28,607 nucleotides of DNA, taken from positions 1 to 28,607 of the IMG/VR virus record IMGVR_UViG_3300035049_000147, one strand, 5' to 3'. The stretch is from a virus. Its lineage: Duplodnaviria; Caudoviricetes. The translations under genes and the position numbers were made by a program. Below, piece after piece: positions 1 through 16,454 of the stretch (positions within the stretch are counted from its first letter, which is position 1; every line of letters starts with the position of its first letter). The notes below the pieces were generated by a model, which was not told the DNA's origin, did not search any database, and saw only the letters and a list, made by a program, of their open reading frames with translations.

Positions 1-42
1 TTCCTCTTCTGCTTCCTCTTCTGCTTCCTCTTCTGCTTCTGC
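1..42. repeat. 12-bp tandem repeat (TTCCTCTTCTGC)x3 encoding AEEE repeats
   Basis: Directly visible in the first 40 bases. Confidence 0.9.
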
Positions 43-696
43 ACCTTCGATAGCCTCCTTGACTCCAGGGATATCACATTTAAGAGCCTTGAGAGTTTTC
101 CATACGATATCCGAAAATTCATCCTGTTCTACATCGATCAAAGCAGCCGCTTCAATACATTTTTCTTTCAAAACCTTTACTTGGAGATTCAACAAGATAG
201 GAGGTTCCAGCCCTAACTCTTCGTTCAGTTCTTTTGCAACCTTTTTGAGTTCTGCTTTTGTAATTTTGCTTGTCTTCATAATAGATTCCTCTTTCATATC
301 TGTAAAGGTGTTATTAGTGGAAATTCGTTTTGTCTCAGGATTGCCAAACATTGTATCCTTAAAATTATTACATATACCAAATCCTCGTAATGGACTCATA
401 TTATCTAATCTAAGAAGCTCGTTGTAAGCCATTTGCAGAACTTGCATACGAGACATATTTCGAGTCCGTTTCCGAAAATAAACTAACGCTTTCTCATATT
501 TGGTAGTCTTTTGTCCATACTTTTTCAGCCAATCAATAACCAGATGATTGATATTTTCCAGGGTCTCTATAATGTTTTCCTTGGAACGGAATTTGAAATC
601 ATCAATAAGAAACTCCAGTGCATTTGTCATAATAGAATTTGGTGAGTCATTTATAATGATTCCATTCATCTCGATTAATTGGCTTGCAGATTTCAT
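1..696 (-). CDS. Hypothetical protein (>232 aa, truncated at window edge) with acidic EAEE repeats
   Basis: Hand-translated open frame from ATG 696 (RBS GGAGG) to position 1: MKSASQLIEMNG...KITKAELKKVAKELNEELGLEPP...EAEEEAEEEAEEE. Missing from the ORF track because the stop lies outside the window. Possible second in-frame start at 279. Confidence 0.8.
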   Translation of the reverse strand, partial: MKSASQLIEMNGIIINDSPNSIMTNALEFLIDDFKFRSKENIIETLENINHLVIDWLKKYGQKTTKYEKALVYFRKRTRNMSRMQVLQMAYNELLRLDNMSPLRGFGICNNFKDTMFGNPETKRISTNNTFTDMKEESIMKTSKITKAELKKVAKELNEELGLEPPILLNLQVKVLKEKCIEAAALIDVEQDEFSDIVWKTLKALKCDIPGVKEAIEGAEAEEEAEEEAEEE

Positions 697-747
697 ATAC
701 CCTCCTTTTTATTTTGATTAACCTCCGTTCCAATCTTTCTGAGTTTC

Positions 748-775
748 ATTATATAGTATCTAATCAAAAAGTCAA
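748..775 (-). promoter_or_regulatory. sigma70-type promoter (copy 1 of duplicated element)
   Basis: Minus strand TTGACT-16 bp-TATAAT upstream of ORF 696. Near-identical to 16353-16380. A 13-bp inverted repeat (779-791/807-819) lies just upstream of the -35. Confidence 0.8.
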
Positions 776-830
776 GACTTTTAAAGACTTTTAAACTTAA
801 AATTTTAAAGTCTTTAAAAACAATACCTTA

Positions 831-1241
831 TCATCCTTCCCGCATCATCTTTGCAAGACGATTTGCCCTATCCCCTACCTGTCTTGCCCATTTCGAATCC
901 ATCATCTCGTCTGCTGCTTTTTCATAATCCCCATCTCGAAGCGCCGCGATCATTTTTTTGAACTGCCGGAAACGATTCGGCCCCAGGTTAAACCTCATAT
1001 TAACAAGGACTCGCCATCGATTCGGAGAAAAATTATAGAACTGGAATCCCATTTCAGTGAGATCAGTATTACAATTTTCAATATCATTCCGCAGTAGATA
1101 TAAAGCTTCATCCTCAGAGATACCAACATCTTCAATATTCCGACCGATTCCGATTGTTAACTTGCCGGCCGGACACATGTATGGCTTCAGTTTCAACCCC
1201 TCATCTCTAATCAATTCTTCTTCAATCATTGTATATAGCAC
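831..1241 (-). CDS. Phage lysozyme (T4-lysozyme-like muramidase, GH24 type)
   Basis: DEGLKLKPYMCPAGKLTIGIGRN (catalytic E...T motif), NMRFNLG, SKWARQVGDRANRL, typical of T4L-like phage muramidases. Confidence 0.9.
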   Translation of the reverse strand: MLYTMIEEELIRDEGLKLKPYMCPAGKLTIGIGRNIEDVGISEDEALYLLRNDIENCNTDLTEMGFQFYNFSPNRWRVLVNMRFNLGPNRFRQFKKMIAALRDGDYEKAADEMMDSKWARQVGDRANRLAKMMREG

Positions 1242-1415
1242 TCAATCCATCCTTATTGTTTTTTTAAGTTCAACAACAAAACCCCGTCCTCTCATCTTCT
1301 GTTGATAATCCCGCGCCTGCTGCAGCCCCTCCAACGTCCCTGAAAATATTTCGATCATAATATTAAAAGGATGCTCGGGACTTGGTTTTTCTACCTGGAC
1401 TTCATACCTTGTCAT
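1242..1415 (-). CDS. Small hypothetical protein (57 aa)
   Basis: Hand-translated MTRYEVQVEKP...RGRGFVVELKKTIRMD*. ATGA overlap with the upstream stop and abuts the lysozyme GTG. Confidence 0.7.
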   Translation of the reverse strand: MTRYEVQVEKPSPEHPFNIMIEIFSGTLEGLQQARDYQQKMRGRGFVVELKKTIRMD

Positions 1416-1831
1416 CTAACAACTCCCGTTTTTTTCTGTGTATCTACTTCAAGAGAAACAGTTTCAGTTTCGAAAATTGTTTCTCGGAAAATATCTCCGG
1501 CTAAACCAACATATCCCGCTTGATCATCATAATTATCAACTTTCCCGGCCCCTGTAAGCTGCCGAGAATGTTTGTAGAGAATCATTAATTGTGCAACATT
1601 TAACGGCGTCAACAAATTTGAAAGGACAGAAACAATCTGATGTTGCATATCATCCGGAATCAGCACGGAAGACTCAATCATTCGATTTGTAATGAGTTGT
1701 TTCAAAGTTGCATTCCAATGATCAGCAATTGTTTCGAAACTATTTTCAGGGGTCCCGTATTGATCTAACCGATTTCCGTTGATAATTTCGAGGGCACACT
1801 TCAAACTTTTACCTCGTTCTGTATTTTTCAT
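1412..1831 (-). CDS. DUF6378-like phage protein
   Basis: IINGNRLDQYGTPENSFETIADHW...VAQLMILYKHSR...DNYDDQAGY matches the family pattern as I recall it. Confidence 0.75.
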   Translation of the reverse strand: MKNTERGKSLKCALEIINGNRLDQYGTPENSFETIADHWNATLKQLITNRMIESSVLIPDDMQHQIVSVLSNLLTPLNVAQLMILYKHSRQLTGAGKVDNYDDQAGYVGLAGDIFRETIFETETVSLEVDTQKKTGVVR

Positions 1832-2352
1832 TTATTCACCTCAATATCTTGATGAATCTTGCTTTCCGTTACCGTCGTCTATCCTTTATATTTCCCGCTG
1901 TAACCCGTATCGCAGCCGTCAACCTTTTTAAACCTGATCTGTGCAATCCGTCGCCCTGGCGTCAATACGATCACACAATTTTTCGATTCGTTCTTTATCT
2001 CGAGCGTTACACGGCCCTCGAATCCAGGATCACAAAATCCAGCCGTGCAATGCACACTGAGAAAACACCGGCCCCAGCTCGACCGGCCATCTACAATCCC
2101 CGCTAAAAACAGCGGAATATTAACCGTCTCCTGTGTCATCCCGAGAATAGTGTCGCCGGGATTCAGACTGATTTCACCGGATACTGGATAATAAGCAACG
2201 CCGCTCACGCCATCGATTATTTGTGCATCTAACGTTTTGAATTCGTTTCCAAGACGCAAATCATAACTCGCTGGCTGCTGCTGTTCAGCACGATACGGTT
2301 CAATCAAATGCATTGACCGGCATAATTTTTCAATTTCCACATTTCCGAGCAT
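1828..2352 (-). CDS. dcd: dCTP deaminase, with an in-frame TAG at 1879-1881 before the last 16 codons
   Basis: QPASYDLRLG, DGRSSWGR, TAGFCDPGFEGRVTLEI, RIAQI, YSGKYKG*TTVTESKIHQD. The frame continues to TGA 1828-1830, which overlaps the next ATG. Confidence 0.9.
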
Positions 2353-2509
2353 TAAGGCCCTCCAACATTAATTTTGATCTTTCTTCATCGATTTCGTTTT
2401 GTACATAATCCCAAATATCGATTACAATCTCTCGCATTTCCCGACCGGAGTAATCGTTAATGATGTGTGCCATAACCTCCAACTGCTGTTCAGTCGGTGT
2501 AATTTTCAC
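2330..2509 (-). CDS. Small hypothetical protein (59 aa)
   Basis: Hand-translated MKITPTEQQLEVMAHIIND...; GTGA overlap with the upstream stop; fills the operon gap. Confidence 0.6.
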   Translation of the reverse strand: MKITPTEQQLEVMAHIINDYSGREMREIVIDIWDYVQNEIDEERSKLMLEGLNARKCGN

Positions 2510-2976
2510 TGTATCCTCACAATTTTATTCTCATATTTACCAAGTGATACATTCCATTTAACTGTTGACAGCGACAGATGTTTTGCTTTTTTCGCAATCT
2601 GAATTTTGTTTCGATTGTGCTGTGACAACAGGATATAATCACAAGTTTCAGCTATCCATGGCGTTAAATAATCCCCGTTTGTATGCAACCCGATACTGAT
2701 ATTTTTATACGACGCGAGAATCCACATCATTTTAGCGTATAAATCAGGCTGTAGTGTTGGCTCCCCGCCGGTAAAAACAATGGCATCCAGCCAGCTTTTT
2801 CGCTCATCCAGTAAATCCAGGATTCCTGACCATTCAATTTTCCCACGTTTTTTTGGGATCAAATCTTTATTGTGACAGTGTGGACAATGGCGGTTGCAGC
2901 CTTGTGTGTAAACAACAAGGGACATCTTGCCGGGGTAATCAATTATGCTGTTTTTATAATATGCTGCTATTTCCAC
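2506..2976 (-). CDS. nrdG: Anaerobic ribonucleotide reductase activating radical SAM protein (NrdG-like)
   Basis: SIIDYPGKMSLVVYTQGCNRHCPHCHN (CxxxCxxC), FTGGEPTLQ, LHTNG. No nrdD in the window. Confidence 0.8.
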   Translation of the reverse strand: MEIAAYYKNSIIDYPGKMSLVVYTQGCNRHCPHCHNKDLIPKKRGKIEWSGILDLLDERKSWLDAIVFTGGEPTLQPDLYAKMMWILASYKNISIGLHTNGDYLTPWIAETCDYILLSQHNRNKIQIAKKAKHLSLSTVKWNVSLGKYENKIVRIQ

Positions 2977-3014
2977 ATTTTTTTCCTTTATTGGGTCAAT
3001 AAGTAGATTTTTTT

Positions 3015-3080
3015 ACCTATTGTAAAGTTGAGCGGTGGGGCGGTCCTTTGCCCCATCCGTTCTCTAACTTTTTATTGGCG
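3015..3080 (-). mobile_element. Degenerate attC-like site
   Basis: Minus strand CGCCAAT-AAA-AAGTT(A)GAG-AA-CGG(A)TGGGGC-loop-GCCCCA-CCG-CTC-AACTT-TAC-AATAGGT: attC-type stem with two extrahelical bases, but both cores altered (AAC to AAT, GTT to AAT). Confidence 0.5.
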
Positions 3081-3096
3081 GGCGCGTGACCCGCGC

Positions 3097-3321
3097 TCAG
3101 TTAAAACAGCTTTTTTCTGAGGCTGATACCTCTCGGTATGCTTCCTCAAAAACCGCTTTTGGCGACCAGGACTTGTAACCGTCTGGATATTCAACGAAGT
3201 ACCCTAGCCGTGTATCTCGGTTGGAAACGTCTTCTCCTTTGTAGGTCTTCAAAAAAGAACACTCATCCATGGGAAACGCTCTAATCAATTTTGCTCCAAT
3301 GTACAATTTTTCTTCTGGCAT
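3097..3321 (-). CDS. Conserved small phage protein (YIG.K...GY.V.Y.DGY.SWSPK.VFE.AY family)
   Basis: KLYIGAKLIRAFPM...GYFVEYPDGYKSWSPKAVFEEAYRE; RBS AAGGA. Confidence 0.8.
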   Translation of the reverse strand: MPEEKLYIGAKLIRAFPMDECSFLKTYKGEDVSNRDTRLGYFVEYPDGYKSWSPKAVFEEAYREVSASEKSCFN

Positions 3322-3410
3322 TTAATTATTCCTTTCTTTTGGTTCGCTCTACGGTTTATCCGTAGTAGCGTTTTGATTGGCTCTGCCTATAGGTCAAAGC
3401 CAATATACTG

Positions 3411-3594
3411 TTGAATGAACAGCGAGGTCTGCCAAATATCAGGCCGCACACGCGGGGATCGGGCAACGTCCTTCCCGCCGCGCTATCGGATGCTCTACCG
3501 TTGCCGGTCATATTGCCCACCGAATTAACCTCACTGCTCAAAAGTCATTCAACAATCAGATTCAGCAGACGGAGTACCGCAGCTGATCTGGGCG
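3411..3594 (+). mobile_element. Integron-type cassette (184 bp) without a convincing ORF
   Basis: Starts at G|TTGAAT (3410-3416, perfect GTTRRRY). Its own R'' ATTCAAC (3547-3553) is the exact complement. Ends at G|TTATAT (3594). Confidence 0.7.
3417..3539 (-). ncRNA. Candidate structured RNA inside the cassette
   Basis: 12-bp closing stem GAGCAGUGAGGU/ACCUCGCUGUUC with G-U pairs only on the minus strand, enclosing an ACCG-GCAA-CGGU GNRA hairpin, CGCGG/CCGCG and GCC/GGC stems. Confidence 0.55.
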
Positions 3595-3600
3595 TTATAT
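3547..3600 (+). mobile_element. attC recombination site (54 bp)
   Basis: ATTCAAC-AAT-CAGAT(T)CAGC-AG(A)CGG-AGTA-CCG-CA-GCTG-ATCTG-GGC-GTTATAT: RYYYAAC...GTT cores, unpaired spacer and extrahelical bases on the left arm. Confidence 0.75.
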
Positions 3601-3836
3601 TACTCAAAGTCCTTAATTTGTTTAGCCATGTCAGCTAATTCAGAAAACAATTTCTCAGCACAAAAAGATGGTACAGAAAATCCACTTCTTTTTGTCATTT
3701 TATTATCGTCGCCAACGGGTTCCCAATATTCGACACAAACATTATCCGAATATCCTGTACACCTATATTCCCACCCATCTTCATTTTTTAGAGTCATTTG
3801 AGGTATTTTTGTTAATTCTCTCCATGTATCATTCAT
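3600..3836 (-). CDS. Hypothetical protein (78 aa)
   Basis: ORF track; RBS GAGGTG; the stop abuts the attC site. Confidence 0.7.
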   Translation of the reverse strand: MNDTWRELTKIPQMTLKNEDGWEYRCTGYSDNVCVEYWEPVGDDNKMTKRSGFSVPSFCAEKLFSELADMAKQIKDFE

Positions 3837-3850
3837 ATTTCACCTCAAAA

Positions 3851-5140
3851 TTAAATGTAGTTTATTTCCTTACCTTCTTCTCTGATCGTCTTAAATACTG
3901 GAAATCTCAATGACACTTCATCATTATTTTGATTTTGACTTTCCCCGAAAAAGGTAATCTCTGCTACCCGACCAATGAATTTATCTTTATTATTCCAGAA
4001 TACCTTCCTCTCGTCATCTGAGAAGCCGCTCCCGACGCTCACTTTATTGCCTTTATATGATACTATCAGATTTCCTAATGTCCCGCGTAAACGCCCTTCT
4101 CCTTCTTCTAAGGCAATAATTTTCAGGTCAGCGGATTGCATCTCTTTTACTTTAAGGAGATTCCTTGTGCGCTTACATTCATATGGAGAGGAGGCCACAT
4201 TAACCATGACTCCTTCGTACCCGTTCGAGATCGCCTGTTTTACTAAGTCAGAAACGTAGGATAAATCATCCCCGTGATATAGAATAGGCACACTCTGAAT
4301 AAAATCCTGTGTACAAGATGCCATATACTTAATCAGAGATTGTTTCCGATTTGCACAAGGTGTTGGTGATGAACCTTCTATAAAATCATCAATAAGTAAA
4401 ACATCAAATACATGGAATACAACACCTGTTTTGATACCTTTCTTCCGTACGATTTTAGATGTAGAACGATACCAATCATCTTCTGTATTGTCGATTGCAA
4501 GTAATTCTCCATCATAGACGAAACCTCGTGGTAACTCTATTGCTGCTTCTTCGATTTCCTTAAGTCCTTGATAGAATTGACCCTGCCTTGTTCTGATTTC
4601 AATTAAACCATCATTATGACAGAAAATGAGAGCACGGTGTCCATCCAATTTTGGAGTGACAATGATATCACCTGTAATTCTATGTTGGAAATCTTGATAC
4701 TTATTCGCCAACATCACATTGAATGTAGGAATATGTAATTGAGTCGGAGTTACTTTATTCCATGTACTGGCTGTAATTCCTAATTTAAGTGATTTTGTGA
4801 CCAAAGCCTGGATTAAGGGGGTTGTATTTATATTTGCGTACGTCGATATAAATACCTGTACTGTTGCTATATCAATATCTTTCCCCGTGTTATTCACTTT
4901 GAGATATTGGAGTAAAGAAGGTAGATTTTTAGGTATCCGGATACTCTTATACTGAGAAACATCCGAAAGAACCTTGCGTACCTTTTTAGCACTCAATCCA
5001 GTAACAATGTATGGGTTGAGGAGGAATTGCATAGTTTCCACGAATAACTCATTGTCTTGATTATCTTTGATAAGTTGTTCTTTAGCTTTACGCCCTGTTA
5101 CATCTTGTAACTTGTTTGTAATTTCTAAGAGAGTATACAT
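3851..5140 (-). CDS. lig: ATP-dependent DNA ligase
   Basis: Motif I TPKLDGHRA, YDGEL, FHVFD, EGVMV, LLKVK, OB-fold VGSGFSD...SLRFP. Confidence 0.95.
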   Translation of the reverse strand: MYTLLEITNKLQDVTGRKAKEQLIKDNQDNELFVETMQFLLNPYIVTGLSAKKVRKVLSDVSQYKSIRIPKNLPSLLQYLKVNNTGKDIDIATVQVFISTYANINTTPLIQALVTKSLKLGITASTWNKVTPTQLHIPTFNVMLANKYQDFQHRITGDIIVTPKLDGHRALIFCHNDGLIEIRTRQGQFYQGLKEIEEAAIELPRGFVYDGELLAIDNTEDDWYRSTSKIVRKKGIKTGVVFHVFDVLLIDDFIEGSSPTPCANRKQSLIKYMASCTQDFIQSVPILYHGDDLSYVSDLVKQAISNGYEGVMVNVASSPYECKRTRNLLKVKEMQSADLKIIALEEGEGRLRGTLGNLIVSYKGNKVSVGSGFSDDERKVFWNNKDKFIGRVAEITFFGESQNQNNDEVSLRFPVFKTIREEGKEINYI

Positions 5141-5152
5141 CTTACCTCATAT

Positions 5153-5191
5153 TAATTTGCCTGTAAAAGGATGAATTTTACAGGCAAATTA
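5153..5191. terminator. 16-bp perfect stem-loop between the ThyX-like gene and ligase
   Basis: TAATTTGCCTGTAAAA-7 nt-TTTTACAGGCAAATTA. Terminator or processing role is inferred. Confidence 0.55.
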
Positions 5192-5248
5192 TTTCGATTT
5201 TAACGTTTAGGTGTATCCCCGATAACCGCTACCATTTCTTTCCTTTAG

Positions 5249-5830
5249 CTATGGCAACAATTCAGGGTGTTCAACTTGATTCCGGACTGACTCAATAAAC
5301 AGCCTCCATTCCGGTAACAGGTGTCCTTTTCGCTGCATAATGATATTCTTGAGCCCCATGTAGTTCAGATTCACGATTCTTCTTTGCAAAAAACCTTCCG
5401 GTAAGGCGTTTTTTATTACATCGATAGGCAACCCAGCTTTTATTTTGTTGTTTATTTTTGCAAGATATTCATGATCAATTCCGCGCTCAAAATCAGCAGG
5501 AGTTAATTTTTGCCTTTTTAGCATATGCATCGTGCTCTCTGAACGCTGTGCCTTCCCGACACCATACGTATCCATCTCTACCCACCAGTACCGCGGCGCT
5601 CTGATATCCCACCAAGTCTGAATCATTTTGAGAGCCCCATCATGACCTCGCTCCATCTTGGAAAGTTTTGATGTACGGTTGCCACACGATACAACAAGCT
5701 CTTCAAATTCTCCTTTAAGAAAATCTTCAAATTCAATACTGCTGGTTTTTCCAAATGACAAGCCATCTCCGAATACTGCTTGATCGTACCCTATCTCACC
5801 AATCAATTTTACATACACAAGCACCTCCAT
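5249..5830 (-). CDS. Divergent ThyX/Thy1-like (flavin-dependent thymidylate synthase fold) phage protein
   Basis: WDIRAPRYWWVEMDTY...SESTMH...NALPEGFLQRRIVNLNY..LKNII.QRKGH.LPEW; lacks the canonical RHR motif. Confidence 0.6.
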   Translation of the reverse strand: MEVLVYVKLIGEIGYDQAVFGDGLSFGKTSSIEFEDFLKGEFEELVVSCGNRTSKLSKMERGHDGALKMIQTWWDIRAPRYWWVEMDTYGVGKAQRSESTMHMLKRQKLTPADFERGIDHEYLAKINNKIKAGLPIDVIKNALPEGFLQRRIVNLNYMGLKNIIMQRKGHLLPEWRLFIESVRNQVEHPELLP

Positions 5831-5836
5831 TAGTTT

Positions 5837-6496
5837 TTATTTCAAATCAAAATGTTTATGCAATTGGAAATTAAAAATAATATGAGATATCAACTTTGGC
5901 AGCTTTAATGCAATTTGCTGTGTAATATACTCTACATCTTTACCGGATGATACTGATAATGCTATGTGTAACCCTTTCCAATCAGATCTTATATTTTGGA
6001 ATGCTTTCATAATCTTGATGGAATATTCCAAATCTTCCTGGTTTTTAATCACAAACTTAATCCAAGTTTGTGAAAAAGAAAGACATTTAAGAAAATACGA
6101 ATATTCCATCATCTTATTCTGTTCACCTGAGCTGGGAGTTTTGTAATCAAAAACATGACAAATCGGGAGAAAAGGTTTTCGACTACCATTGGTTTCAACT
6201 TGAATAATACACTCTTTATCACTCAACAACGAAATCAGTTCCCATAATTCTCCTTGATTTTGGAATAAAGGCTCGCCTCCTGTCAAAATTACATTGCTAC
6301 CAAAAGGTATTTTTTCACTAATCCTTTTCGGAGTCATAACGATTGCATCTTCTGATTCTGTAGATTGTGCTCTTCGAGTATCACACCAAGCACAACGTAA
6401 ATTACACCCTTGAAAACGGATAAACCAAGCAATCGCCCCTTGAGGAATAATCCCTACCTCTCCACTAATCGATTGAAAAATTTCATTGATTTCCAT
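5837..6496 (-). CDS. queE: 7-carboxy-7-deazaguanine synthase (radical SAM)
   Basis: INEIFQSISGE, FIRFQGCNLRCAWCDT, LTGGEP, VETNG, DYKTPSSG, QLHK; adjacent to queD. Confidence 0.92.
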   Translation of the reverse strand: MEINEIFQSISGEVGIIPQGAIAWFIRFQGCNLRCAWCDTRRAQSTESEDAIVMTPKRISEKIPFGSNVILTGGEPLFQNQGELWELISLLSDKECIIQVETNGSRKPFLPICHVFDYKTPSSGEQNKMMEYSYFLKCLSFSQTWIKFVIKNQEDLEYSIKIMKAFQNIRSDWKGLHIALSVSSGKDVEYITQQIALKLPKLISHIIFNFQLHKHFDLK

Positions 6497-6510
6497 ATTT
6501 TTTTTCCTTT

Positions 6511-6867
6511 TTAGTACGTTACTTCTGCGTATCCAGTATCAGTTTCCCACAATCGGATTTTAACCAACAGAGGAGACTGCTGTTTAATTACCTGGAAAAT
6601 ATCCATGGCCATATTCTCCGCGGTTGGATTCTTTCCGTAGGATTCAGACGTTAGAAATGAATGATCATACCGATCAATAATCGGTTGAAGAATTTCCTTG
6701 ATCCTTTTGAAATCCATTACCATTCCTGTTTCCGGATGGATTTCGCCTTCAAAGGTACACTCGAGTTTGTAACTATGTCCATGGATTTGTTTGCATTCCT
6801 CGGAATAACACTGTTTCAATTGGTGTGCTGTTTCGAACTTTACAATTTTTGTTACTCTGATTCTCAT
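6511..6867 (-). CDS. queD: 6-carboxy-5,6,7,8-tetrahydropterin synthase
   Basis: FETAH..C..IHGHSY, GMVMDF, YDHSFL, NPTAEN, LWET. Confidence 0.95.
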   Translation of the reverse strand: MRIRVTKIVKFETAHQLKQCYSEECKQIHGHSYKLECTFEGEIHPETGMVMDFKRIKEILQPIIDRYDHSFLTSESYGKNPTAENMAMDIFQVIKQQSPLLVKIRLWETDTGYAEVTY

Positions 6868-8483
6868 TTATCTTCCTTTCTTCTCTTAGGAGTTTTATCA
6901 AGGAAACTCCCTGTAAATGGTCTTCCTTGTTGCAGACATTGTAGAATACAGACCTGTCTTCCAGAACCTCCCTCATCATCTCGAACCATCAATTCATTTA
7001 TTCGTAGGATTCCTAATCTTTTTTCAATTCCTTTTTGATCCTGATTCAATCCATAAAACGCTGTGACGTGACTGTATTTTCGTTTATCCTCACTGAAGTT
7101 TTTCAAATTCAATGTATCTTGATCATAACTATTTGCATCAGCTTGTGTGGCCGTAATAACCAGGCAGTGTCTTTCCTGTGATATTCGCCGGCCGCCTTTC
7201 CATATCTCATTTTGTTTGTGACGAAATTCATTGGTAGGATCTGTCAACAAATCCATGTAATCAATCAGAACAACATCTGGAACGAAATTATCCTGTCGTT
7301 CCCATCGATCCAAAACAGCTCTGATTTCTTTGATAGATAATGTACCATTGTAATACGTACTGAGTTTATATCTACCTCGCTTTCGTTTAATGACTTTTCC
7401 CTTTGGTTTAAAAAATTCCTGGCGGACTCGCTGGGCTTCTTTTGCTGTTAATGGTTTAACTTGTTTGGTTTTTTCAAACCAAACCGACCCTACAAAATCA
7501 GGGCAATTGTACATCCCACATGGTTTGTAATCTTTACCATGTTTATCTATCAGTTCTTCGATAGCTTCATGGGATTTCCCTGCTACACTCTTGATGTAGG
7601 AATAGGCTTGATTAGCTTCCGTTTTTGGATTGATACATCCATACCCTTTTCGTCCCTCCCGATCACACTCATCATTGAAATTACGCCCACAATCTAAGAC
7701 AGGTACTCGGATAGGTTTACAATACTTGGATTTATCTGATTTTTTAGCAAGAGAAATACATATCCTCCGAAGTTGCTGATCTTCCGTCATATCGCCTGCC
7801 TGGAAGAATGCAACATTAGCTCCTTGTCTACAAGCACGAATTGATAAGTCCATCAATATCCATGTCTTGCCTCGTTTTTCAGATCCGAGAAAAGCAATAA
7901 ATCCCCCGCGTATGAGCTGGTGATTTAGGAAGCCACCTAATGGCCCGGGGTAGGTGACAGTAGGCAATTCTGCTAAGGAAAATGCTAATTCTATCCGGGC
8001 ATCCGAGTCGGAACTGGATAGGTCTACGTCATTTTCGGCACCTTCTTCAAGAGGACGATATTCAGAAGCAATAGCTTCCGCCTCTACTAAATCCCCTTGT
8101 GATAACATACCTGTAATCTGATCGGCGAATAGACTCAGATTCCGTTCTCTGAAGTACTGTTTGGTTTGATCCATCAAGTACTGAACATTGAAATGAGTTC
8201 TATCATATTCATCAGATAGATCAGGTAGTATATCTTCTTCGATATCTTCAGCAACTTCTTTATTGAGTCCGGCTTTTAATTTTTGTAGGTAAATCCCCTC
8301 AATATCTTTGCCAGGAGCTTTTTCGTATCTTTCGAAATACTCCATACACCATCCTGCAAGAGTTTGGGCCATGTTGGATTGGAGTATTCGAATATCCCAC
8401 ATTCGAGAAACTTCGCGGATGTAAGTATCAGAAACAATCAGGCCGATCACAATCCGGCGTTCAATATGTTTATCAGGTTTCAT
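6864..8483 (-). CDS. DnaB-like (SF4) replicative helicase
   Basis: Walker A variant GSEKRGKT, VLIDYMD, ITATQA, FSEDKRK; follows the DnaC-like loader. Confidence 0.8.
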   Translation of the reverse strand: MKPDKHIERRIVIGLIVSDTYIREVSRMWDIRILQSNMAQTLAGWCMEYFERYEKAPGKDIEGIYLQKLKAGLNKEVAEDIEEDILPDLSDEYDRTHFNVQYLMDQTKQYFRERNLSLFADQITGMLSQGDLVEAEAIASEYRPLEEGAENDVDLSSSDSDARIELAFSLAELPTVTYPGPLGGFLNHQLIRGGFIAFLGSEKRGKTWILMDLSIRACRQGANVAFFQAGDMTEDQQLRRICISLAKKSDKSKYCKPIRVPVLDCGRNFNDECDREGRKGYGCINPKTEANQAYSYIKSVAGKSHEAIEELIDKHGKDYKPCGMYNCPDFVGSVWFEKTKQVKPLTAKEAQRVRQEFFKPKGKVIKRKRGRYKLSTYYNGTLSIKEIRAVLDRWERQDNFVPDVVLIDYMDLLTDPTNEFRHKQNEIWKGGRRISQERHCLVITATQADANSYDQDTLNLKNFSEDKRKYSHVTAFYGLNQDQKGIEKRLGILRINELMVRDDEGGSGRQVCILQCLQQGRPFTGSFLDKTPKRRKEDK

Positions 8484-8635
8484 TTCCCTATGAGTTCCTT
8501 TCTCCTTTGATATGCTTGTTCAGAAGCCTTTTTCAATTCTCCTTTCCATTTTTTAGTATGCTTGTAATAAAAGGACCATACAAAGAGATTATGGATATAA
8601 CGGATTCGAAATTTTATTTCCTGATATAGATTCAT
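8480..8635 (-). CDS. Small basic hypothetical protein (51 aa)
   Basis: Hand-translated MNLYQEIKFRIRYIHNLFVW...ELIGK*; ATGA overlaps at both ends. Confidence 0.7.
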   Translation of the reverse strand: MNLYQEIKFRIRYIHNLFVWSFYYKHTKKWKGELKKASEQAYQRRKELIGK

Positions 8636-9309
8636 TTCCCAATCCTATAATCTTTATTAGTAAAATGTTTGATTTGGCACATTTCGACTATTCTACTTGG
8701 AATACGATCATCTCCATATTGATGAGCAAGTCCATTCAGATCAGAGTTTGATGTAATGATTGTTAATTTCAGATTCTCATACCGATTATTAATGATCAGA
8801 AGCAATATGTTTAGAACCCAATCCGTTACCTTTTGCCCGCCGATATCATCCAGGATGAGGATATCTGTCTGACTATACTTCTCAATGATTTGCTGAGATG
8901 TTTGTGAATCATTACGATCAAAACTTGCACGGATTTCCTCAAGTAAATTGAGAACATTAACAAACCCACCAGTTATATATGGTATATCATCTAATAAATA
9001 TGATTGTCGTTTCAACTCCATTAAAACGGCAGATGCATAGATAGTTTTTCCAGTACCTGCAGGACCATACAAATACAACCCCTTCTGTACCGGGCTTTTT
9101 TCAAGCTTTATTCGAACGAATTGTAAAACTTTTACAATTCGAGGTGAAAATATCTGAGCAGCTTCTTCCCATTTGATTAGATCCCATTGTTTCTTTTTCA
9201 TACATTCGCGGCAAAGTTCCCGATTATTCGAAATTGGTTGCTTACAGATGAGGCATTGTTTCATATTTGATACGGTTCCTATAAATACTTTGTTTAGAAT
9301 TCGTTTCAC
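8632..9309 (-). CDS. DnaC/IstB-like AAA+ helicase loader
   Basis: N-terminal CxxC..CxxC, GPAGTGKT, LILDDIG, IINNRY, TSN, RIPSRIVEM. Confidence 0.9.
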   Translation of the reverse strand: MKRILNKVFIGTVSNMKQCLICKQPISNNRELCRECMKKKQWDLIKWEEAAQIFSPRIVKVLQFVRIKLEKSPVQKGLYLYGPAGTGKTIYASAVLMELKRQSYLLDDIPYITGGFVNVLNLLEEIRASFDRNDSQTSQQIIEKYSQTDILILDDIGGQKVTDWVLNILLLIINNRYENLKLTIITSNSDLNGLAHQYGDDRIPSRIVEMCQIKHFTNKDYRIGK

Positions 9310-9332
9310 TTTATAATATATTATACTGATTT

Positions 9333-10250
9333 CTACCTATCTTTTTGAGGTTTTTTTTCAGGATCATAAATTTCTCCGGTTGGGTAGGAAATATTATTTG
9401 TGACTTCTCTGGATTGCAGGGTGTGGGTTCCAAAACTGGGTTTTTTCGAAGCGGAATTGTTGGTAATACTTTCTGGGAAAACACCTTGCCAACCATTTTC
9501 CATGGACAGCTCCAACGCTTGCGTTGCTTCCTGAATGGAATATTTAGTTAGCTTTTTTGCTAGCCTTGATGCTGCTACCTTAGTCAATTTGGAACCTTTC
9601 TCTTTTCTATGCTGGATGAAATCTCTGATTGATTCTTGGAAAGATTTATCATTCTTCCATTCTTGTGGAAAGAGATTTAGAATCCAATCAGAATCAGAAA
9701 AATCCTTTTTTTCTTTTTGGTCTTCTTTATAATTAGTCTTCTTTATAATTAGTCTTTTTAGTCTTTTATTACCCTGACTGACGGTTCCCCTGACTGACGG
9801 TTCCCCTGACCCAGGGTTTTCTATGTCAGGCTTTTCCGGTTCTTGGAATTCTTTGTTGAATGGCTCCATCCCATATTTCTTTAGTCTACGCCGGATTCGT
9901 TTCCAATCAAAAGCATTGGCCATATCCACGCAGATCCAGGTGGATCCTTGTATTCTTTTGGTAGGATCTCCAGCCTTGCGATATCTGAGCCGGATCAAAT
10001 ATCCATTCTGTTCCAATTCTCTCAATCCAGATTCGATAGACAATACGCCATCTGTCCCATACTTTTGGATGGTTTTTTTGAATGAAAACCAGCCTTGTTT
10101 ATTGCTGAGGATCAGGGTTAAGATTCCTTTAGCTTTCCAGGACATTTTTGGATTGCGGATTGTATCGTTAGGTACTTTTGTGAAATTATCAGGGGTGTTG
10201 TGGACGATGATATCTGGAAGCCGGTTTCCAGCAGGAGTCGTTCTTTCCAT
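9333..10250 (-). CDS. Phage replication initiator (N-terminal HTH, C-terminal helical domain)
   Basis: NFTKVPN...SWKAKG...GLRELEQNGYL and C-terminal FIQHRKEK...SMENGWQGVF. Start placed at ATG 10250 (RBS GGAGG, TAATG overlap) rather than 10310. Confidence 0.8.
   Translation of the reverse strand: MERTTPAGNRLPDIIVHNTPDNFTKVPNDTIRNPKMSWKAKGILTLILSNKQGWFSFKKTIQKYGTDGVLSIESGLRELEQNGYLIRLRYRKAGDPTKRIQGSTWICVDMANAFDWKRIRRRLKKYGMEPFNKEFQEPEKPDIENPGSGEPSVRGTVSQGNKRLKRLIIKKTNYKEDQKEKKDFSDSDWILNLFPQEWKNDKSFQESIRDFIQHRKEKGSKLTKVAASRLAKKLTKYSIQEATQALELSMENGWQGVFPESITNNSASKKPSFGTHTLQSREVTNNISYPTGEIYDPEKKPQKDR
9720..9810. repeat. Putative replication origin: iterons plus AT-rich repeats inside the initiator gene
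   Basis: GTCTTCTTTATAATTA x2 (9720-9751) and CCCTGACTGACGGTTC x2 plus a partial copy (9772-9810). Confidence 0.7.
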
Positions 10251-10687
10251 TATATCCCCTCCCGATTTATGTTGTTCGCGTGTTTCTGAGCAGCAAGTCT
10301 TTCCAGCCATTCTCTATCTTCTTCGATCAGCACATCTTCCAAGTCTCCGGCAGTCAAATGCCAAGATACCCCAATTATATACTTCCTTCCTGGTCCTGGG
10401 TTGCGGTGGGTTTCTTTTATCAACAGTCCCGCTTCGAGTAATTCATGTATTCCTGAAGAAACGGCATCCCAGCCTTCTTTGGTATGGTCGAGCAGGAATT
10501 CTTTTTTGTTTTTCGTCGGGTCGTTGAATAGTTCTTGGTTGGCTTCGATTAATAGGAACAATCCTTTTGCTTTAAAGGAGATGCCAGAATGTTGTAAAAC
10601 ACGTCTGGAAAGACCGCCATAAAAAAAGGAATCCATAAAAAAGGAATTACGATCTTCATACAATTTAATTTTTGAATCTTGTTTCAT
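10250..10687 (-). CDS. HTH protein paralogous to the initiator N-terminus
   Basis: GISFKAKGLFLLI...KEGWDAVSSGIHELLEAGLL aligns by eye with KMSWKAKGILTLI...TDGVLSIESGLRELEQNGYL. ATG 10687 has RBS GAGGTG. Confidence 0.7.
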   Translation of the reverse strand: MKQDSKIKLYEDRNSFFMDSFFYGGLSRRVLQHSGISFKAKGLFLLIEANQELFNDPTKNKKEFLLDHTKEGWDAVSSGIHELLEAGLLIKETHRNPGPGRKYIIGVSWHLTAGDLEDVLIEEDREWLERLAAQKHANNINREGI

Positions 10688-10741
10688 AAAACACCTCACA
10701 AATTGCTTGGAGGAGGCTTCGATGCTAACCCAAAGAAACCA

Positions 10742-10817
10742 CCATCATGGTTAAAGGAAGAGGGTTTGGGGGATGTGATGGCATCCCCCTTTTAACGGTC
10801 TGGCCGGACCGCACCCC
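10742..10817 (-). ncRNA. Structured leader RNA (two hairpins in a closing stem) upstream of the replication genes
   Basis: GGGGU[GCGGUC-CGGCCA-GACCGU][GGGGGAUG-CCAUCA-CAUCCCCC]ACCCU; loop CCAUCA is complementary to downstream UGAUGG (10742-10747). Confidence 0.55.
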
Positions 10818-10866
10818 TGGAAGATCTATAATATAATATATTATAGGAGAAAAATAAAGGGGTGAT

Positions 10867-11064
10867 TTATATTCCTATATACAGCAATTCATAAATATAA
10901 TCAGGCTCCAATCCAAACCAGTTCATGCAAATATCATAGTCAGGATCTCCATTTGAGATGCTTTCTTCCAAAGCTATTTTTGCATCTCGGATTAGATTCT
11001 GAGCTTCATTTTCTGACATACCATCTCGACTCATCAGGATTTCTTTGATTGTTTTTCTATGCAT
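10867..11064 (-). CDS. Hypothetical phage protein (65 aa)
   Basis: ORF track; ILMSRDGMS...FGLEPDY; fits the operon. Confidence 0.75.
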   Translation of the reverse strand: MHRKTIKEILMSRDGMSENEAQNLIRDAKIALEESISNGDPDYDICMNWFGLEPDYIYELLYIGI

Positions 11065-11065
11065 T

Positions 11066-11986
11066 TTATTCCCTCATAAATTTGCTCATCATTTCGTTGG
11101 CATCTTCCTGTTCCATCCCTCCAGGATCACCAATAATTATCTCCTGCCGCGCTTCCATCCCTCGGAAGTTTAGATCAGCTACTAATTCTTTACCCTTGAT
11201 GATTGCTTGTGGATCATCATCAAACAAGACAATCAATCTTCGATCACCTCCTTTCCTTTTCATTTTACAAATGGCGCGGACTTGCTGAGATAGATATTCA
11301 ATGCCAAATACACAGACGGCTTGTTTTCCCAGCCGCCAGACATCTGTGATTCCCTCAACCACAATGACGGGCTTTGCCCAATTACACTCTGGATGACAAT
11401 ATAAGATATGCTGGTGACAAATTAACTCCCGATCAAGCGGACAGGCTTTGTATTTTGGTTCTACTTTACTCGAAATAGTTCGGCCTTGGAAAGAAACCAC
11501 TTTACCTTCCCAGATAATTGGAGCTATGATCCTCCATTTATAATCGATTCTCCCCAGTTTAGCGATAGGCCCTGTACACAGTATTCCCCAATTTTTTGAA
11601 AGGGAATCTGGCGTGAAATTTCGCGAAGTAAGATATATTTTATGCTGAGGCAATAATTCTTCTGCACCGGATGGGTATTTAAAGGCTTTTCTTCTGATAG
11701 ATATTTTGGTAGTTGGGATCGTAGGCTTCATGCCGACATACTTACGGGCGAGTTCCCGTACCTGGGATTCTGGGGTATTGCTTAATTTGCTGAGGGTTTT
11801 ATAAATAGGGTGTTTTCCACAGCGCCAGCATCGGGCAACTCTGCCGTCGATCGGGATACCTAAATGGTAATTTTGCGACCCCTGGCAAAATGGGCAGTGC
11901 ATATTTACCCATCCAGTAGTACAGTGCTTATTTCCGCTGCTTATAAATTCTATTCCAAGTTGTGAGAGTAATCCGGGTATATCCAT
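11066..11986 (-). CDS. DNA primase (Zn finger + TOPRIM)
   Basis: CPFC...CWRC, RIIAPI...FQGR, PKY, VVEGITD, LFDDD, DPG. Confidence 0.9.
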   Translation of the reverse strand: MDIPGLLSQLGIEFISSGNKHCTTGWVNMHCPFCQGSQNYHLGIPIDGRVARCWRCGKHPIYKTLSKLSNTPESQVRELARKYVGMKPTIPTTKISIRRKAFKYPSGAEELLPQHKIYLTSRNFTPDSLSKNWGILCTGPIAKLGRIDYKWRIIAPIIWEGKVVSFQGRTISSKVEPKYKACPLDRELICHQHILYCHPECNWAKPVIVVEGITDVWRLGKQAVCVFGIEYLSQQVRAICKMKRKGGDRRLIVLFDDDPQAIIKGKELVADLNFRGMEARQEIIIGDPGGMEQEDANEMMSKFMRE

Positions 11987-12001
11987 TTCAGCCTCAGTAT
12001 T

Positions 12002-12112
12002 TTATTTCGTAAGGGTATTTTGATCTGTATTGGCCCATCCTGGACGACAATGTTTATGCCCTGTCGTTTGATAAGGGATATGTAATTGATCAAGAACCGG
12101 TTGTATATTCAT
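12002..12112 (-). pseudogene. Truncated primase N-terminal remnant (36 aa)
   Basis: MNIQPVLDQLHIPYQTTGHKHCRPGWANT versus primase MDIPGLLSQLGIEFISSGNKHCTTGWVNM. Confidence 0.7.
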
Positions 12113-12118
12113 TTTCAA

Positions 12119-12352
12119 CTACTCCTGTTCTATCAATTCCCGGTAAGTTTTCCATTCTTGTATAAATTCTTTTCTTCTTCTGCAAATTTCTTTATCTTTG
12201 CAGTCTATACAAAATACATTGTCCACATATCTACACCCGTTTTTATCAGATACGAATTTTGGAGCAGTGCAACTTTCCGGGGGATTCGGCATATGTCCTC
12301 CTAATTTACTTGGTATTTCTACTTTTTTGTCTTTTCTACGAGTTCTTATCAT
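12119..12352 (-). CDS. Cys-rich hypothetical protein
   Basis: ORF track 12119..12433; likelier start MIRTRRK at 12352, after the sigma stop; C...CRY..N.FCIDC...C. Confidence 0.6.
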   Translation of the reverse strand: MIRTRRKDKKVEIPSKLGGHMPNPPESCTAPKFVSDKNGCRYVDNVFCIDCKDKEICRRRKEFIQEWKTYRELIEQE

Positions 12353-12375
12353 ATTATTCCCTTTCCCAATATGGA

Positions 12376-12846
12376 TTACATTGATCTCAATAATTTCCGC
12401 ATCTCTGTGAAGGTTTTCCATATCTGATCCCATGTCCAGCCTTCCTTTCGAAGTTTGTCCTTGACTTTACCACGGCCTCCGTATCCCAAAAATTCACTTG
12501 GAGATTGAAATATCATCCAGACCAGGTATTTAATTTCTTCAGACCCGTTTTCTATAGCTGATTTGAAAATGATCCGATTTTCATGTGAGGATGAGAATGA
12601 ATCGATGGTTGTTTGGGCATCTTCTGGGCTTTTGAGGTAATATTCATTTTGTTTTTTACAGTAATCTATCAAATGACATTTGATTCGGATGTACATAAAC
12701 GTGGAAAGCCTTGCTTTTTTCGGATCGTATTTAGGTAACCAGGTAGCGTAGGCAAGTGAAGCTTCCCCGATTAAATCGTCAATAGGCAATCCCGTTGTTT
12801 TGTTAAAAGACCAAGCTATTTTTTGTATAAGTTTCATATCTTGCAT
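12376..12846 (-). CDS. Phage-encoded sigma70-family (region 2) factor
   Basis: LIQKIAW...DDLIGEASLAY...YDPKKARLSTFMYIRIKCHLIDYCKK. Confidence 0.75.
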   Translation of the reverse strand: MQDMKLIQKIAWSFNKTTGLPIDDLIGEASLAYATWLPKYDPKKARLSTFMYIRIKCHLIDYCKKQNEYYLKSPEDAQTTIDSFSSSHENRIIFKSAIENGSEEIKYLVWMIFQSPSEFLGYGGRGKVKDKLRKEGWTWDQIWKTFTEMRKLLRSM

Positions 12847-12899
12847 TCTCTTTCCTTCATTAGATAAGCGCCTGACCATTGTTGATCAGGCGCAAATTA

Positions 12900-15560
12900 T
12901 TATGATTTTGAATACTGTTCCATCAATTCCCCAAGTAGATTCGTAGATTCGGTTTCAATCCCATCCAAGACTTGATCGAGGACTTTCCTCTTGTCATCTA
13001 TCAGTTTGGCTGTTGTTTCTTCAATAGTTCCGGTTGAAAGGAGAAAATAGATATTAACGCTATATTTTTGTCCGATTCTGTGACACCGGTCTTCCGCTTG
13101 TGCAATTTCCGAGGGAGACCAGGGTAATTCTGCAAACGCTACCGAGCTGGCTGCTGTGAGCGTAAGCCCGACCCCCGCAGCATTGATGTTCCCTACGAAT
13201 ACTCGACATCGTGGATTATTTTGAAACGTATCTACAGCGACCTGCCGGTTATCCTGGCTGACAGATCCATCTACTTTGACGGGACTGTAATCGGCCAGTT
13301 CGTTCATCAGGCGGTCAATGGTCTTCTTGTGGACGGCAAAGACAACCAATTTGCCATTGGTGTCCAAGTGGTCCTTGATCCAATCAATCGCTTGAGTCAT
13401 CTTCCCTTCAGCTGCAAGCTGCTTGAGGGCTGAGATCTTCGCCAGGGCTTCGGCATTCCCGGCTTTCTCAGCTGCCGCCAGGCCCTTTTCCCGCTTTACC
13501 CATCCAATGAAATCCGCCTCAACAACCTTGTATTTCTTCCTGTTGTTGATTTCCATAGGAACAAACGACCGGACCTTGGCTGGTAGGTCCTTCAGAACAT
13601 CAGCTTTTTTCCTGCGAATCATAACAGTACTCGTCAGTTTTTCGTGGAGTTTTGCTATGTTGGATGCTCCATTGAAATCCCACCCCCAACCATTGTATTT
13701 CCCATCGCAATATCTTTTTCCGAATGCTGTCCAGGTTCCAACCGCCCCCGGATCAATCATTTTAACAGCATTGTATATCTCCGCTGGTCGGTTTTCGATA
13801 GGTGTTCCGGACAATCCTATGATATGAGGGGTTGATTTGGCAAGGTTTGTGACCGCTTTGGTTCTCTGAGTGCCTTTATTTTTGATCTTGTGCACCTCGT
13901 CCAGCACCAGGACTTGTGGCTTGATTGCTTTCAAAGCCTTTACCCATGCCCCGATGATGTCATAGTTGATAATAATGATTTCGCCTACTATCGGGGTATT
14001 GGCTTTCTTCCCGGACAGGATCTGGACTTTCGGGTTACTTATCCACATTGAACATTCACGTTCCCAGTTCAATTTCAGACTGGCGGGAACGACAATCACA
14101 ACTGGACGTTTTTCCGGATGCAGCTGAAGCCATGCCAGGGACTGTGCGGTTTTACCGAGTCCCATCTCTGATGCGATTAAACATCTCCCTTGCAAAGCTT
14201 CAACTTTCATCACGTCCTCTAATTGAAAATGGTATAAAGCCCGTTGAATACCATCAATTTTTAAGAACGTTTGCAATGCTTTAAGCGTATTACAGTCCAT
14301 CCAAGGCTTTTCAGTACCGCATCCCTTTTCTTGTCCAGTCGTTGTTGTTCCATCGGAAGGTGGCATACTCCGTCCAGTTCTATCACTATTTTGTCTTCTG
14401 GATGGGCAAAGTCGGCTTTGTATGCATTCGCAACATGCTTGTACTTGGTCTGATGCCCTTTTGTTGGGATTGGATATTCCCTTATGTATCCACATTTGGT
14501 TAATAATTTGTTTGCAATTTTCACTATCAAAGTCATCTCTTGGCCGTTCCCTCCTCTGAAGTTGATCCCATGAATTGCTCGGGCTTTTTCCAATCCTTTC
14601 AAATGCTTTTTCCTGATTTCTGGTCGATGCATCGCTTCCGTCGTGTTCTTGGATACTTTTTCCCGTCATTCTGGATCGTCGGCAATTTTCCTCAGTGTTT
14701 CGGTTGCTTTCAGTCTGGCTTCTGGTTGACGTCCTTTTGCTAAATTCTTCTTGGCGGCTTTTAACTGATTTGTTGTGCGTGGGTAAACTCCTCTGGGCAT
14801 AGTCTTCTCCTATGTTTTGGTTATTATTCCAAACCCCATTATATAATGGGCATAGGGAAAAATCAATATTCATGAGTGGTTTTATTTTAGTCTCTATCGG
14901 TTCTGTTGATTTTTCCATGTATTCCATCAAGGTCAAGTCCATCTGGAATCCAATTTCTTGCAGCTGTTCTACCGTTTCTATCGATAAAGGAGCTGTCCAG
15001 TATTTGTTTTGGCCTTCATTATGAAAGCGCCGCCCGGGAAGCAATTTGACTTTGTATAGAATTTCCTGACTAAAAGGAAATTCTATTTTGATTAGCGGCG
15101 GAGAAGAATCAATCAGGGAGGCTTTCTTTATTTGTTTCTTCGGTTTTTTTAACATCGGATGATCTGCGGGCGGATGAATATCCTCAGTGGTTTCCATCGT
15201 TTCTTTAATGATGGATTTAGGAAACCATCCTTCCACTTTGATATCTATTATTGCTTTGGTTATAGCGTCCGCATTTTCTTTACTGTACCCGCCTATCAAA
15301 TCCCAATCATGAAAATGTTTTCCGCATTCAGGTCCAACTCCCACGGAAATAGAAACAGGATGAGTTAGTCTCCAGCCGCATATACAGCAGACGCCCTCAC
15401 GTTTGGTTTCTACTGTACCATGACCATATAAGTATACAGCTTTTGGGGTTTGTTTAATCACTTTTGCAATAAAGTATACGGGGGCTTTTTTACTACGCGC
15501 GAAGGTTGAATTGATCTTGAAAATTTTGACGGTTCCATTAGGAAGCTCCATTTCTATCAT
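12900..15560 (-). CDS. SNF2-family (SMARCAL1/ZRANB3-like) helicase with N-terminal Zn finger and HARP-like domain; contains a 203-codon insertion
   Basis: CCICGWRLTHPVS...GPECG; FPFSQE..LPGRRF..W; EMGLGKT, VPASLKLNW, LDEVH, LSGTP, GVGLTLT, QAEDRCHRIGQ. Confidence 0.9.
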   Translation of the reverse strand: MIEMELPNGTVKIFKINSTFARSKKAPVYFIAKVIKQTPKAVYLYGHGTVETKREGVCCICGWRLTHPVSISVGVGPECGKHFHDWDLIGGYSKENADAITKAIIDIKVEGWFPKSIIKETMETTEDIHPPADHPMLKKPKKQIKKASLIDSSPPLIKIEFPFSQEILYKVKLLPGRRFHNEGQNKYWTAPLSIETVEQLQEIGFQMDLTLMEYMEKSTEPIETKIKPLMNIDFSLCPLYNGVWNNNQNIGEDYAQRSLPTHNKSVKSRQEEFSKRTSTRSQTESNRNTEENCRRSRMTGKSIQEHDGSDASTRNQEKAFERIGKSPSNSWDQLQRRERPRDDFDSENCKQIINQMWIHKGISNPNKRASDQVQACCECIQSRLCPSRRQNSDRTGRSMPPSDGTTTTGQEKGCGTEKPWMDCNTLKALQTFLKIDGIQRALYHFQLEDVMKVEALQGRCLIASEMGLGKTAQSLAWLQLHPEKRPVVIVVPASLKLNWERECSMWISNPKVQILSGKKANTPIVGEIIIINYDIIGAWVKALKAIKPQVLVLDEVHKIKNKGTQRTKAVTNLAKSTPHIIGLSGTPIENRPAEIYNAVKMIDPGAVGTWTAFGKRYCDGKYNGWGWDFNGASNIAKLHEKLTSTVMIRRKKADVLKDLPAKVRSFVPMEINNRKKYKVVEADFIGWVKREKGLAAAEKAGNAEALAKISALKQLAAEGKMTQAIDWIKDHLDTNGKLVVFAVHKKTIDRLMNELADYSPVKVDGSVSQDNRQVAVDTFQNNPRCRVFVGNINAAGVGLTLTAASSVAFAELPWSPSEIAQAEDRCHRIGQKYSVNIYFLLSTGTIEETTAKLIDDKRKVLDQVLDGIETESTNLLGELMEQYSKS
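14261..14800 (-). pseudogene. Putative homing endonuclease (basic N-terminus + DUF559/Vsr-like PD-(D/E)XK domain), internal TGA at codon 45
   Basis: RBS GGAGAA, MPRGVYPRT...DDPE*REKVSK...REYPI...YKADFAHPEDKIVIELDGVCH...DKKRDAVLKSLGWTVIR. Same strand as the helicase, different frame. Confidence 0.8.
14838..14866 (-). promoter_or_regulatory. Internal sigma70 promoter for the endonuclease
   Basis: TTGATT-17 bp-TATAAT, about 40 bp upstream of ATG 14800. Confidence 0.75.
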
Positions 15561-15584
15561 GGTTTTATTCCTTTTATTTATTTG

Positions 15585-15902
15585 TTATTCGCAGCTTTTT
15601 CTTCTGCTTGGAATAGCTATGTTAAATTCAGAAAACGGGGAATAATCTATGTTATTGAGGATTATTTTTTTCACTCTGTTTTCTGGTGAGATATAATGTG
15701 GGCAATGAATACAAGTGAAGCTCGCCCAGGGTTGGTTACAGACATAACAGAGGCATTTAGTATAATAAGGGCAATCAAGATGCCGATGAAAGTCTACTTC
15801 ATCAATAGGAATGTAAACAAATCTTTCTACAGGGAGTTGATTTTTGGTGAGGGTTATTTTTTTGCTTTTTACATGTTTTACTTGCATTTTCCTCTCTTTC
15901 AT
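15585..15902 (-). CDS. Cys-rich hypothetical protein
   Basis: CPYYTKCLCYVC...WASFTCIHCPHY. Confidence 0.7.
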   Translation of the reverse strand: MKERKMQVKHVKSKKITLTKNQLPVERFVYIPIDEVDFHRHLDCPYYTKCLCYVCNQPWASFTCIHCPHYISPENRVKKIILNNIDYSPFSEFNIAIPSRRKSCE

Positions 15903-16042
15903 TCCAAGAAATTTTTGCCTATAAAAATGGCGAGTGGCAATAACATCACACCGGCAAAATTAATCCATGGAAACCATTGTCCGTCGCTTGATGCAATAAG
16001 TATCCCTATAAAAAAAAGGATACCCGGGATAGATTTTTTCAT
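15899..16042 (-). CDS. Small two-TM membrane protein (47 aa)
   Basis: Hand-translated MKKSIPGILFFIGILIASSDGQWFPWINFAGVMLLPLAIFIGKNFLE*; RBS AAGGAG; ATGA overlap. Confidence 0.75.
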   Translation of the reverse strand: MKKSIPGILFFIGILIASSDGQWFPWINFAGVMLLPLAIFIGKNFLE

Positions 16043-16278: not shown

Positions 16279-16352
16279 GATGTCTCCTTCTGTTAAGATG
16301 TCCTCGGTAAATCCGGCTTTGTTTTTGTTGATTTCCAATCTTTCTGAGTATC

Positions 16353-16380
16353 ATTATATAATATCAAATCAAAAAGTCAA
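16353..16380 (-). promoter_or_regulatory. Leftward sigma70 promoter (copy 2 of duplicated element)
   Basis: TTGACT-16 bp-TATAAT. Confidence 0.8.
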
Positions 16381-16454
16381 GACTTTTAAACTTAAAATTT
16401 TAAAAGAAAAGTATAATGAAAAGAAGAGGTTAGAAATATATCACTGAATCCAAT

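Follow-up and report, generated by a model that had tools for sequence, protein, structure and literature searches.

Integrons are generally viewed as a bacterial device, and many of their cassettes are anti-phage. attC sites in phages are already published: in the portion of Qi et al. 2023 (PMC9892861) available to us, phage attC clusters without a nearby integrase lie among accessory genes and commonly carry methyltransferases as cargo, and five of six tested phage attC sites recombined with IntI1. The locus described here lies in a stretch of 28,607 nucleotides that was analysed as a whole (hereafter the window), and resembles these phage CALINs in having an attC site amid phage accessory genes and no integrase close by. 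It differs in two respects, since that paper counted clusters of at least two sites whereas the window has one scoring site, and its example TJE1 carries three sites in sense orientation whereas the site family of the window faces against its genes. A term search of the same portion of the paper returned neither "antisense" nor "opposite", and the inverted layout is not found in the literature searched, outside which most subscription journals lie: no paper on a systematic antisense cassette layout in phages turned up.

Two further systems are close. The SALIN/attG case (Loot et al., 10.1101/2022.09.11.507474), as far as the accessible part describes it, shares with our locus a single attC without integrase and a GWT junction, with excision possible at the insertion point; that description concerns bacterial genomes and stray cassettes, whereas the family of the window is met repeatedly in phages and keeps a fixed antisense orientation there, and a hairpin-flanked swap point forms the left junction of the unit. 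With the canonical cassette and its attC, as set out in the sections consulted of Bouvier 2009 (PMC2727003) and Nivina 2016 (PMC5027507), the site shares the R''/L''/L'/R' boxes, the unpaired spacers and the two unpaired bases 6 pairs apart on the R''-L'' arm. It is unlike the canonical form in being 54 nt long rather than 57-141 bp, in having as first unpaired base an A and not the bottom-strand G usual in attC, and in its reversed gene direction, with no intI, attI or Pc seen; the bottom-strand G and the 57-141 bp length are typical, not absolute, attC features.

The attC-type site and the unit that it closes

The window is a tailed-phage fragment, with terminase, portal, capsid and tail genes on the + strand and replication and nucleotide genes on the - strand, from a record that is 36% complete (CheckV). 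The runs holding the locus are labelled oil field metagenome, and no RNA run is listed among them. The locus sits between an ATP-dependent DNA ligase gene (3851-5140, - strand) and an nrdG-like radical SAM gene (2506-2976, - strand), whose top NCBIfam match was NrdG2 with a score below cut-off. Its features are as follows.

2988..3836, no strand assigned: accessory block between the DNA ligase and the nrdG-like gene, missing from the relative L007
3097..3321, - strand: 74-aa gene of a widespread phage family, function unknown
3345..3370, no strand assigned: second hairpin, in front of the 74-aa gene and nearly identical in phage L018
3356..3520, - strand: candidate 54-codon frame (putative gene), GTG start, GAGGT at 3532-3528, spacing 7 nt
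3367..3412, + strand: hairpin, arms 3376-3382/3398-3404, 5 nt before the left GTT, AGC in place of attC AAC
3410..3418, + strand: left core G|TTGAATGA, complementary to R'' and its flank; the homology with L018 stops here
3411..3594, + strand: cassette-type unit, 184 bp between two G|TT points
3547..3600, + strand: attC-type site of 54 nt, R'' 3547-3553, L'' 3559-3566, L' 3582-3588, R' 3594-3600
3600..3836, - strand: 78-aa orphan ORF whose stop codon adjoins the R' end of the attC-type site

The earlier note had seen an attC-shaped imperfect palindrome ending G|TTATAT, and the full box anatomy is indeed present at 3547-3600. G|TTATAT is R', the R''-L'' and L'-R' spacers are 5 nt each, the loop is 4 nt, and one unpaired base lies within the 8-nt L'' with the second at 3569, 6 pairs further. 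By the rule given in the parts of PMC2727003 and PMC5027507 at hand, the unpaired bases on the R''-L'' arm, read on the + strand, make this the top strand of the site; the genes on both sides lie on the - strand, so the coding strand of the phage genes is the bottom strand of the site and the attC does point opposite to phage transcription, as had been claimed. The bottom strand folds at -10.9 kcal/mol (z -3.98), a value equalled by none of 200 shuffles, and the top strand gives z -2.79. Compared with RYYYAAC/GTTRRRY (spacers 5-6 nt), the R''/R' boxes fit exactly in AAC/GTT and in spacing and loosely in the outer bases. The bottom-strand hairpin thus carries its unpaired bases on the R''-L'' arm as an attC does, with one stem pair (3567/3581) being an A-A mismatch that is G-C in seven of nine aligned copies; covariation in this 9-copy alignment is uninformative, the copies hardly varying.

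A home-made attC covariance model, built from 18 sense-layout sites, gave the site 38.6 bits (E 3.9e-6) against 12.4 for the next best position in the window, a score that is partly circular because 13 of the 18 model sequences were picked by patterns derived from the window site. By this model the site is the only scoring one in the window and its overlapping fragments. A crude rule scanner alone did not discriminate (7 equal-score matches in 25 shuffled windows), Rfam returned no match at the locus, and no terminator-like site was found in 2900-3900. We conclude that 3547-3600 is a real attC-type site.

The complementary pair on which the note was built is correctly placed, with GTTGAATGA occupying 3410-3418 and TCATTCAAC occupying 3545-3553. 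Together they form part of a perfect 10-nt inverted repeat (3409-3418/3545-3554), and the 9-mer is found once per strand in the window, at these two places. Closing 3411-3594 yields a 184-nt circle in which, as had been proposed, the R''/R' pair is regenerated: pairing extends to 9-11 nt, as in canonical attC, and the site folds at -18.0 kcal/mol compared with -10.7 kcal/mol as placed in the genome. The 184-bp unit thus has the complementary ends of a cassette, which rebuild a paired R box in the circle, and the attC-type site closes this cassette-type unit. Pairing between the two ends (3411-3428 with 3527-3553) also continues outside the core, where a bulge is followed by a second stem of 9 pairs.

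A site family set against its genes

The 46-nt core of the window site recurs with 2-3 substitutions in seven distinct phage-like loci (L093, L099, L100, L101, L102, L103 and L145). A degenerate pattern run over 185,579 genomes returned six loci, five of them bacterial-type with sense genes and the sixth L093, a 2-kb phage-like contig whose site equals that of the window at 43 of 46 core positions; among these six genome loci, the core was not found in the bacterial-type arrays and is present only in L093. A tighter pattern returned six metagenome loci (L100 and L104 being one element), and L145 was added by a viral scan. Conservation of the core begins at AAC and ends at GTT. All seven core loci point against their genes, a call based on Pfam-identified neighbours in five, on ORFs with ribosome-binding sites (RBS) in L100 and on ORF length and purine skew in L145, which argues that a whole class is oriented in this opposite way as a rule and that no chance insertion is behind it. 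The earlier reading missed that phage DNA normally has this site family in antisense layout, as it missed the lack of the family in the bacterial-type arrays and the candidate antisense gene start of the unit. A DNA methyltransferase starts directly behind the R'' end in four of the seven (L099, L101, L102 and L103), and L101, L103 and L145 have the R''-side flank in common and diverge past GTT, as predicted by crossover at R'. One carrier of the core, G010, is a complete 38-kb phage; the IntI candidate in G010 was rejected, being an ordinary phage integrase only (TIGR02249 82 bits, cut-off 265).

Beyond the core family, a loose viral scan returned 43 loci, of which 32 were kept after removal of 11 duplicates or copies of the window phage. 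A heuristic based on ORF length and purines called 20 of these antisense, 8 sense and 4 mixed; Pfam neighbours were used thereafter because the heuristic miscalled L096 and left L093, L095 and L103 mixed. The Pfam scan covered 150 of 163 neighbouring ORFs (L142, L145 and L146 left out) and identified a neighbour in 18 of the 29 viral loci scanned, 13 being antisense and 5 sense, whereas all five bacterial-type loci were sense (Fisher p 0.007, with loci that are not fully independent and with weak calls for L123 and L147). Inversion is therefore not universal in phages, five of 18 viral loci and the published array TJE1 being sense; three of the sense viral loci hold bacterial-type cargo (type I R-M, Mrr and FRG). 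An upstream GTT followed by at least 5 bases complementary to the site's own R'' flank was present at 21 of 40 sites versus 1.0 expected from swapped controls, four sites with too little flank being left out of the count. This end symmetry shows closed units; alone it does not assign a site to a unit.

Cargo, junctions and relatives

The interior of the unit is GC-rich (57% versus 42% for the window), a value reached by 4 of 1560 other 136-nt windows within 1-16000. It folds no better than shuffles (z 0.07 and -1.07), and a structured RNA as cargo is accordingly unsupported. On the + strand the unit has a 37-codon frame only, without RBS, which is not the top-strand gene of a usual cassette. 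On the - strand, the GTG of the candidate 54-codon frame lies at offset 76 from the GTT end of the site; 36 of its codons fall within the unit and the remainder overruns the left junction; frames in L093 and L102 likewise read through into the next site. Among the other closed units shorter than 320 nt, 8 of 11 contain an antisense ORF, 46-91 codons long and preceded by an RBS, that begins 58-77 nt from the GTT end of the site. The unit may therefore hold a gene, its RBS and antisense frame standing where sister units start theirs. A 61-aa version of the frame had no homologue among proteins of 33-107 aa and fell in no family, no relative of the interior was found in viral contigs, GenBank phages or plasmids, and BLASTN of 3330-3605 against plasmids and GenBank phages gave nothing except one 39-nt chance match; interior 18-mer matches in two other viral contigs were discarded, the surrounding sequence being unrelated with no further homology. 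The interior is either an orphan micro-gene or a remnant.

At the left junction, the distant phage L018 has the 74-aa gene and both hairpins preceding it, with a compensatory pair change in the preceding stem, and its alignment with the window holds to the GTT at 3410-3412 and then breaks; the junction is accordingly a natural swap point. On its attC-like geometry the hairpin at 3367-3412 is possibly a decayed attC site. It receives no attC score from the home-made model, so that in CALIN terms (at least two attC sites without integrase) the locus has one scoring site and one that is attC-like in geometry, and a scan for an intact version returned 11 weak chance-like matches with weak folds and no end matching. 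Two further hairpins follow the 74-aa gene (window 3020-3106, z about -4.5), and 3060-3106 resembles the left half of a site of the 3367-3412 hairpin kind, with an 11-nt repeat. Phages with relatives of the 74-aa gene (L016 2736-3070; L018 2100-2800) have degenerate attC-shaped sites between ordinary genes, some apparently sense. A Tad2-like identity for the 74-aa protein was considered and found unsupported, as PDB gave no match under E 0.5 and PHROGs only unknown-function families.

The earlier proposal of accessory DNA between ligase and nrdG was borne out at a larger scale: in the relative L007, whose ligase is 93% identical, the ligase runs straight into the nrdG-like gene, so it is the whole block of about 850 bp at 2988-3836, not just the 184 bp, that is accessory. 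As regards precise presence or absence at G|TT, the left G|TT coincides with the homology break with L018; L007 lacks the whole block, the unit is unaltered in all three further contigs of this phage, and no relative differing by exactly the 184-bp unit was found. Neither an empty site nor an excision joint at either G|TT occurred in contigs of 4 of the 24 listed runs, a weak negative, given a depth of about 5 and the loss of rare variants from contigs. In two of the four runs a contig exits the window at 3519, inside the 184-bp unit, and enters exactly 891-920 in a lysozyme gene; the two places have 7 nt in common (TTGCCCA), the junction is not at a G|TT point, and the join points to a 2.6-kb circle or a tandem duplication, unless it is a shared artefact.

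The 36%-complete record yielded no tyrosine recombinase, and no integrase turned up in the window or four related fragments; intI, attI and Pc are absent from the 3.4-kb and 25-kb flanks, so that a complete integron is not present there. The statement that no integrase is in view thus stands for the record and says little about the phage, the record being a fragment. The viral contig L125/G011, which has antisense cassettes, encodes a full IntI of its own adjoining them (1497-3050; 405 bits, cut-off 265). After the site in L125 there is a near-consensus sigma-70 promoter (~1560-1590).

Several other features of the window were recorded: QueE-like and QueD/PTPS genes at 5837-6867, suggesting a 7-deazaguanine pathway; a dCTP deaminase of 157 aa, compared with 174 aa in L003, shortened by a sequence difference near 1879; an inverted repeat at 5153-5191 upstream of the ligase; and an 82-nt stretch near 730-810 repeated at 16333-16404 with 84% identity.

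Origin of the unit and its meaning

Our preferred reading, to which we give roughly two chances in three, is that a 54-nt attC hairpin set against the phage genes closes a 184-bp unit that is likely a circular cassette moved by an integron-type integrase, and that this unit likely belongs to a phage-borne pool of backwards genes. The 184-nt circle would have entered the phage as a cassette through such an integrase; an IntI-family enzyme, supplied by the host, a helper or an unseen part of the phage genome, would act on the bottom strand in its folded form, cutting it at G|TT and linking the circle to the GTT with which the neighbouring 74-aa-gene unit ends. Each unit has an RBS just inside its R'' end, which suggests that the cargo would be read by phage transcription running from ligase towards nrdG, making a Pc promoter unneeded. 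In what is the weakest step, the cargo would be the 54-codon peptide or its decayed remains. Displacement of the bottom strand during transcription might, speculatively, favour its folding.

If instead a gene-less bacterial cassette had landed once at a phage GTT of the attG type through a host IntI, the orientation would be a matter of chance; this account comes near to that of the earlier note. The single scoring site in the window and overlapping fragments and the GC-rich interior without a recognisable gene are in keeping with such a SALIN, as is the account, in the part of 10.1101/2022.09.11.507474 consulted, that IntI inserts cassettes at GWT and that single attC sites are common. We consider this origin unlikely, as the core was found in phage-like DNA only and always antisense, the left junction is a swap point common to L018, and the RBS position agrees with that of sister units. 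MAGs often lose integron arrays, so the cassette may still have had a host source. Far less plausible still is that the hairpin is a terminator or RNA-processing structure whose GTT/AAC match arose by chance: it does follow the stop of the 78-aa ORF in an intergenic region where hairpins are plentiful, but the searches for terminator-like sites and Rfam matches came back empty, family conservation is bounded by AAC and GTT, and end matching far exceeds the 1.0 site expected.

A closer competitor shares the cassette origin and differs only in arrival route and present activity. The unit would be a dead relic that arrived within the ~850-bp block by phage mosaicism from a cassette-bearing phage and is immobile now. 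The block is missing from L007 in its entirety, and its two limits are not those of a cassette; the A-A mismatch, the AGC for AAC in the left hairpin and the half-site-like stretch near 3060-3106 look like decay; and the unit is identical in all copies of the phage, with no excision joints in the contigs of the 4 of 24 runs. Against this, the two ends retain perfect complementarity over 10 nt and only 2 of 46 core positions depart from the family, and intact ends with a near-invariant core suggest recent mobility. We rate this account as improbable on balance, though less so than a single chance landing; the window copy may be a decaying relic. We return to the phage-borne cassette in its wider form, which we advance tentatively and regard as somewhat doubtful: phages would keep a backwards cassette pool of their own, whose genes the phage operon reads and a host integron Pc would not, with one 46-nt attC lineage circulating between phages that are unrelated and bringing DNA methyltransferases and small proteins along, and with the 184-bp unit as one of the smallest live members, encoding an orphan peptide that takes its C-terminus from the adjoining site.

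On its own, the locus is one site with unclear cargo. What it adds is a short, near-invariant attC lineage that can be followed from phage to phage, together with a minimal 184-bp substrate that lends itself to simple assays. If the reading is true, a phage-side, reversed cassette pool rich in DNA methyltransferases would mean that phages use integron recombination, plausibly for counter-defence, and the pool would offer a testable clue to the places where cassettes are produced and traded.
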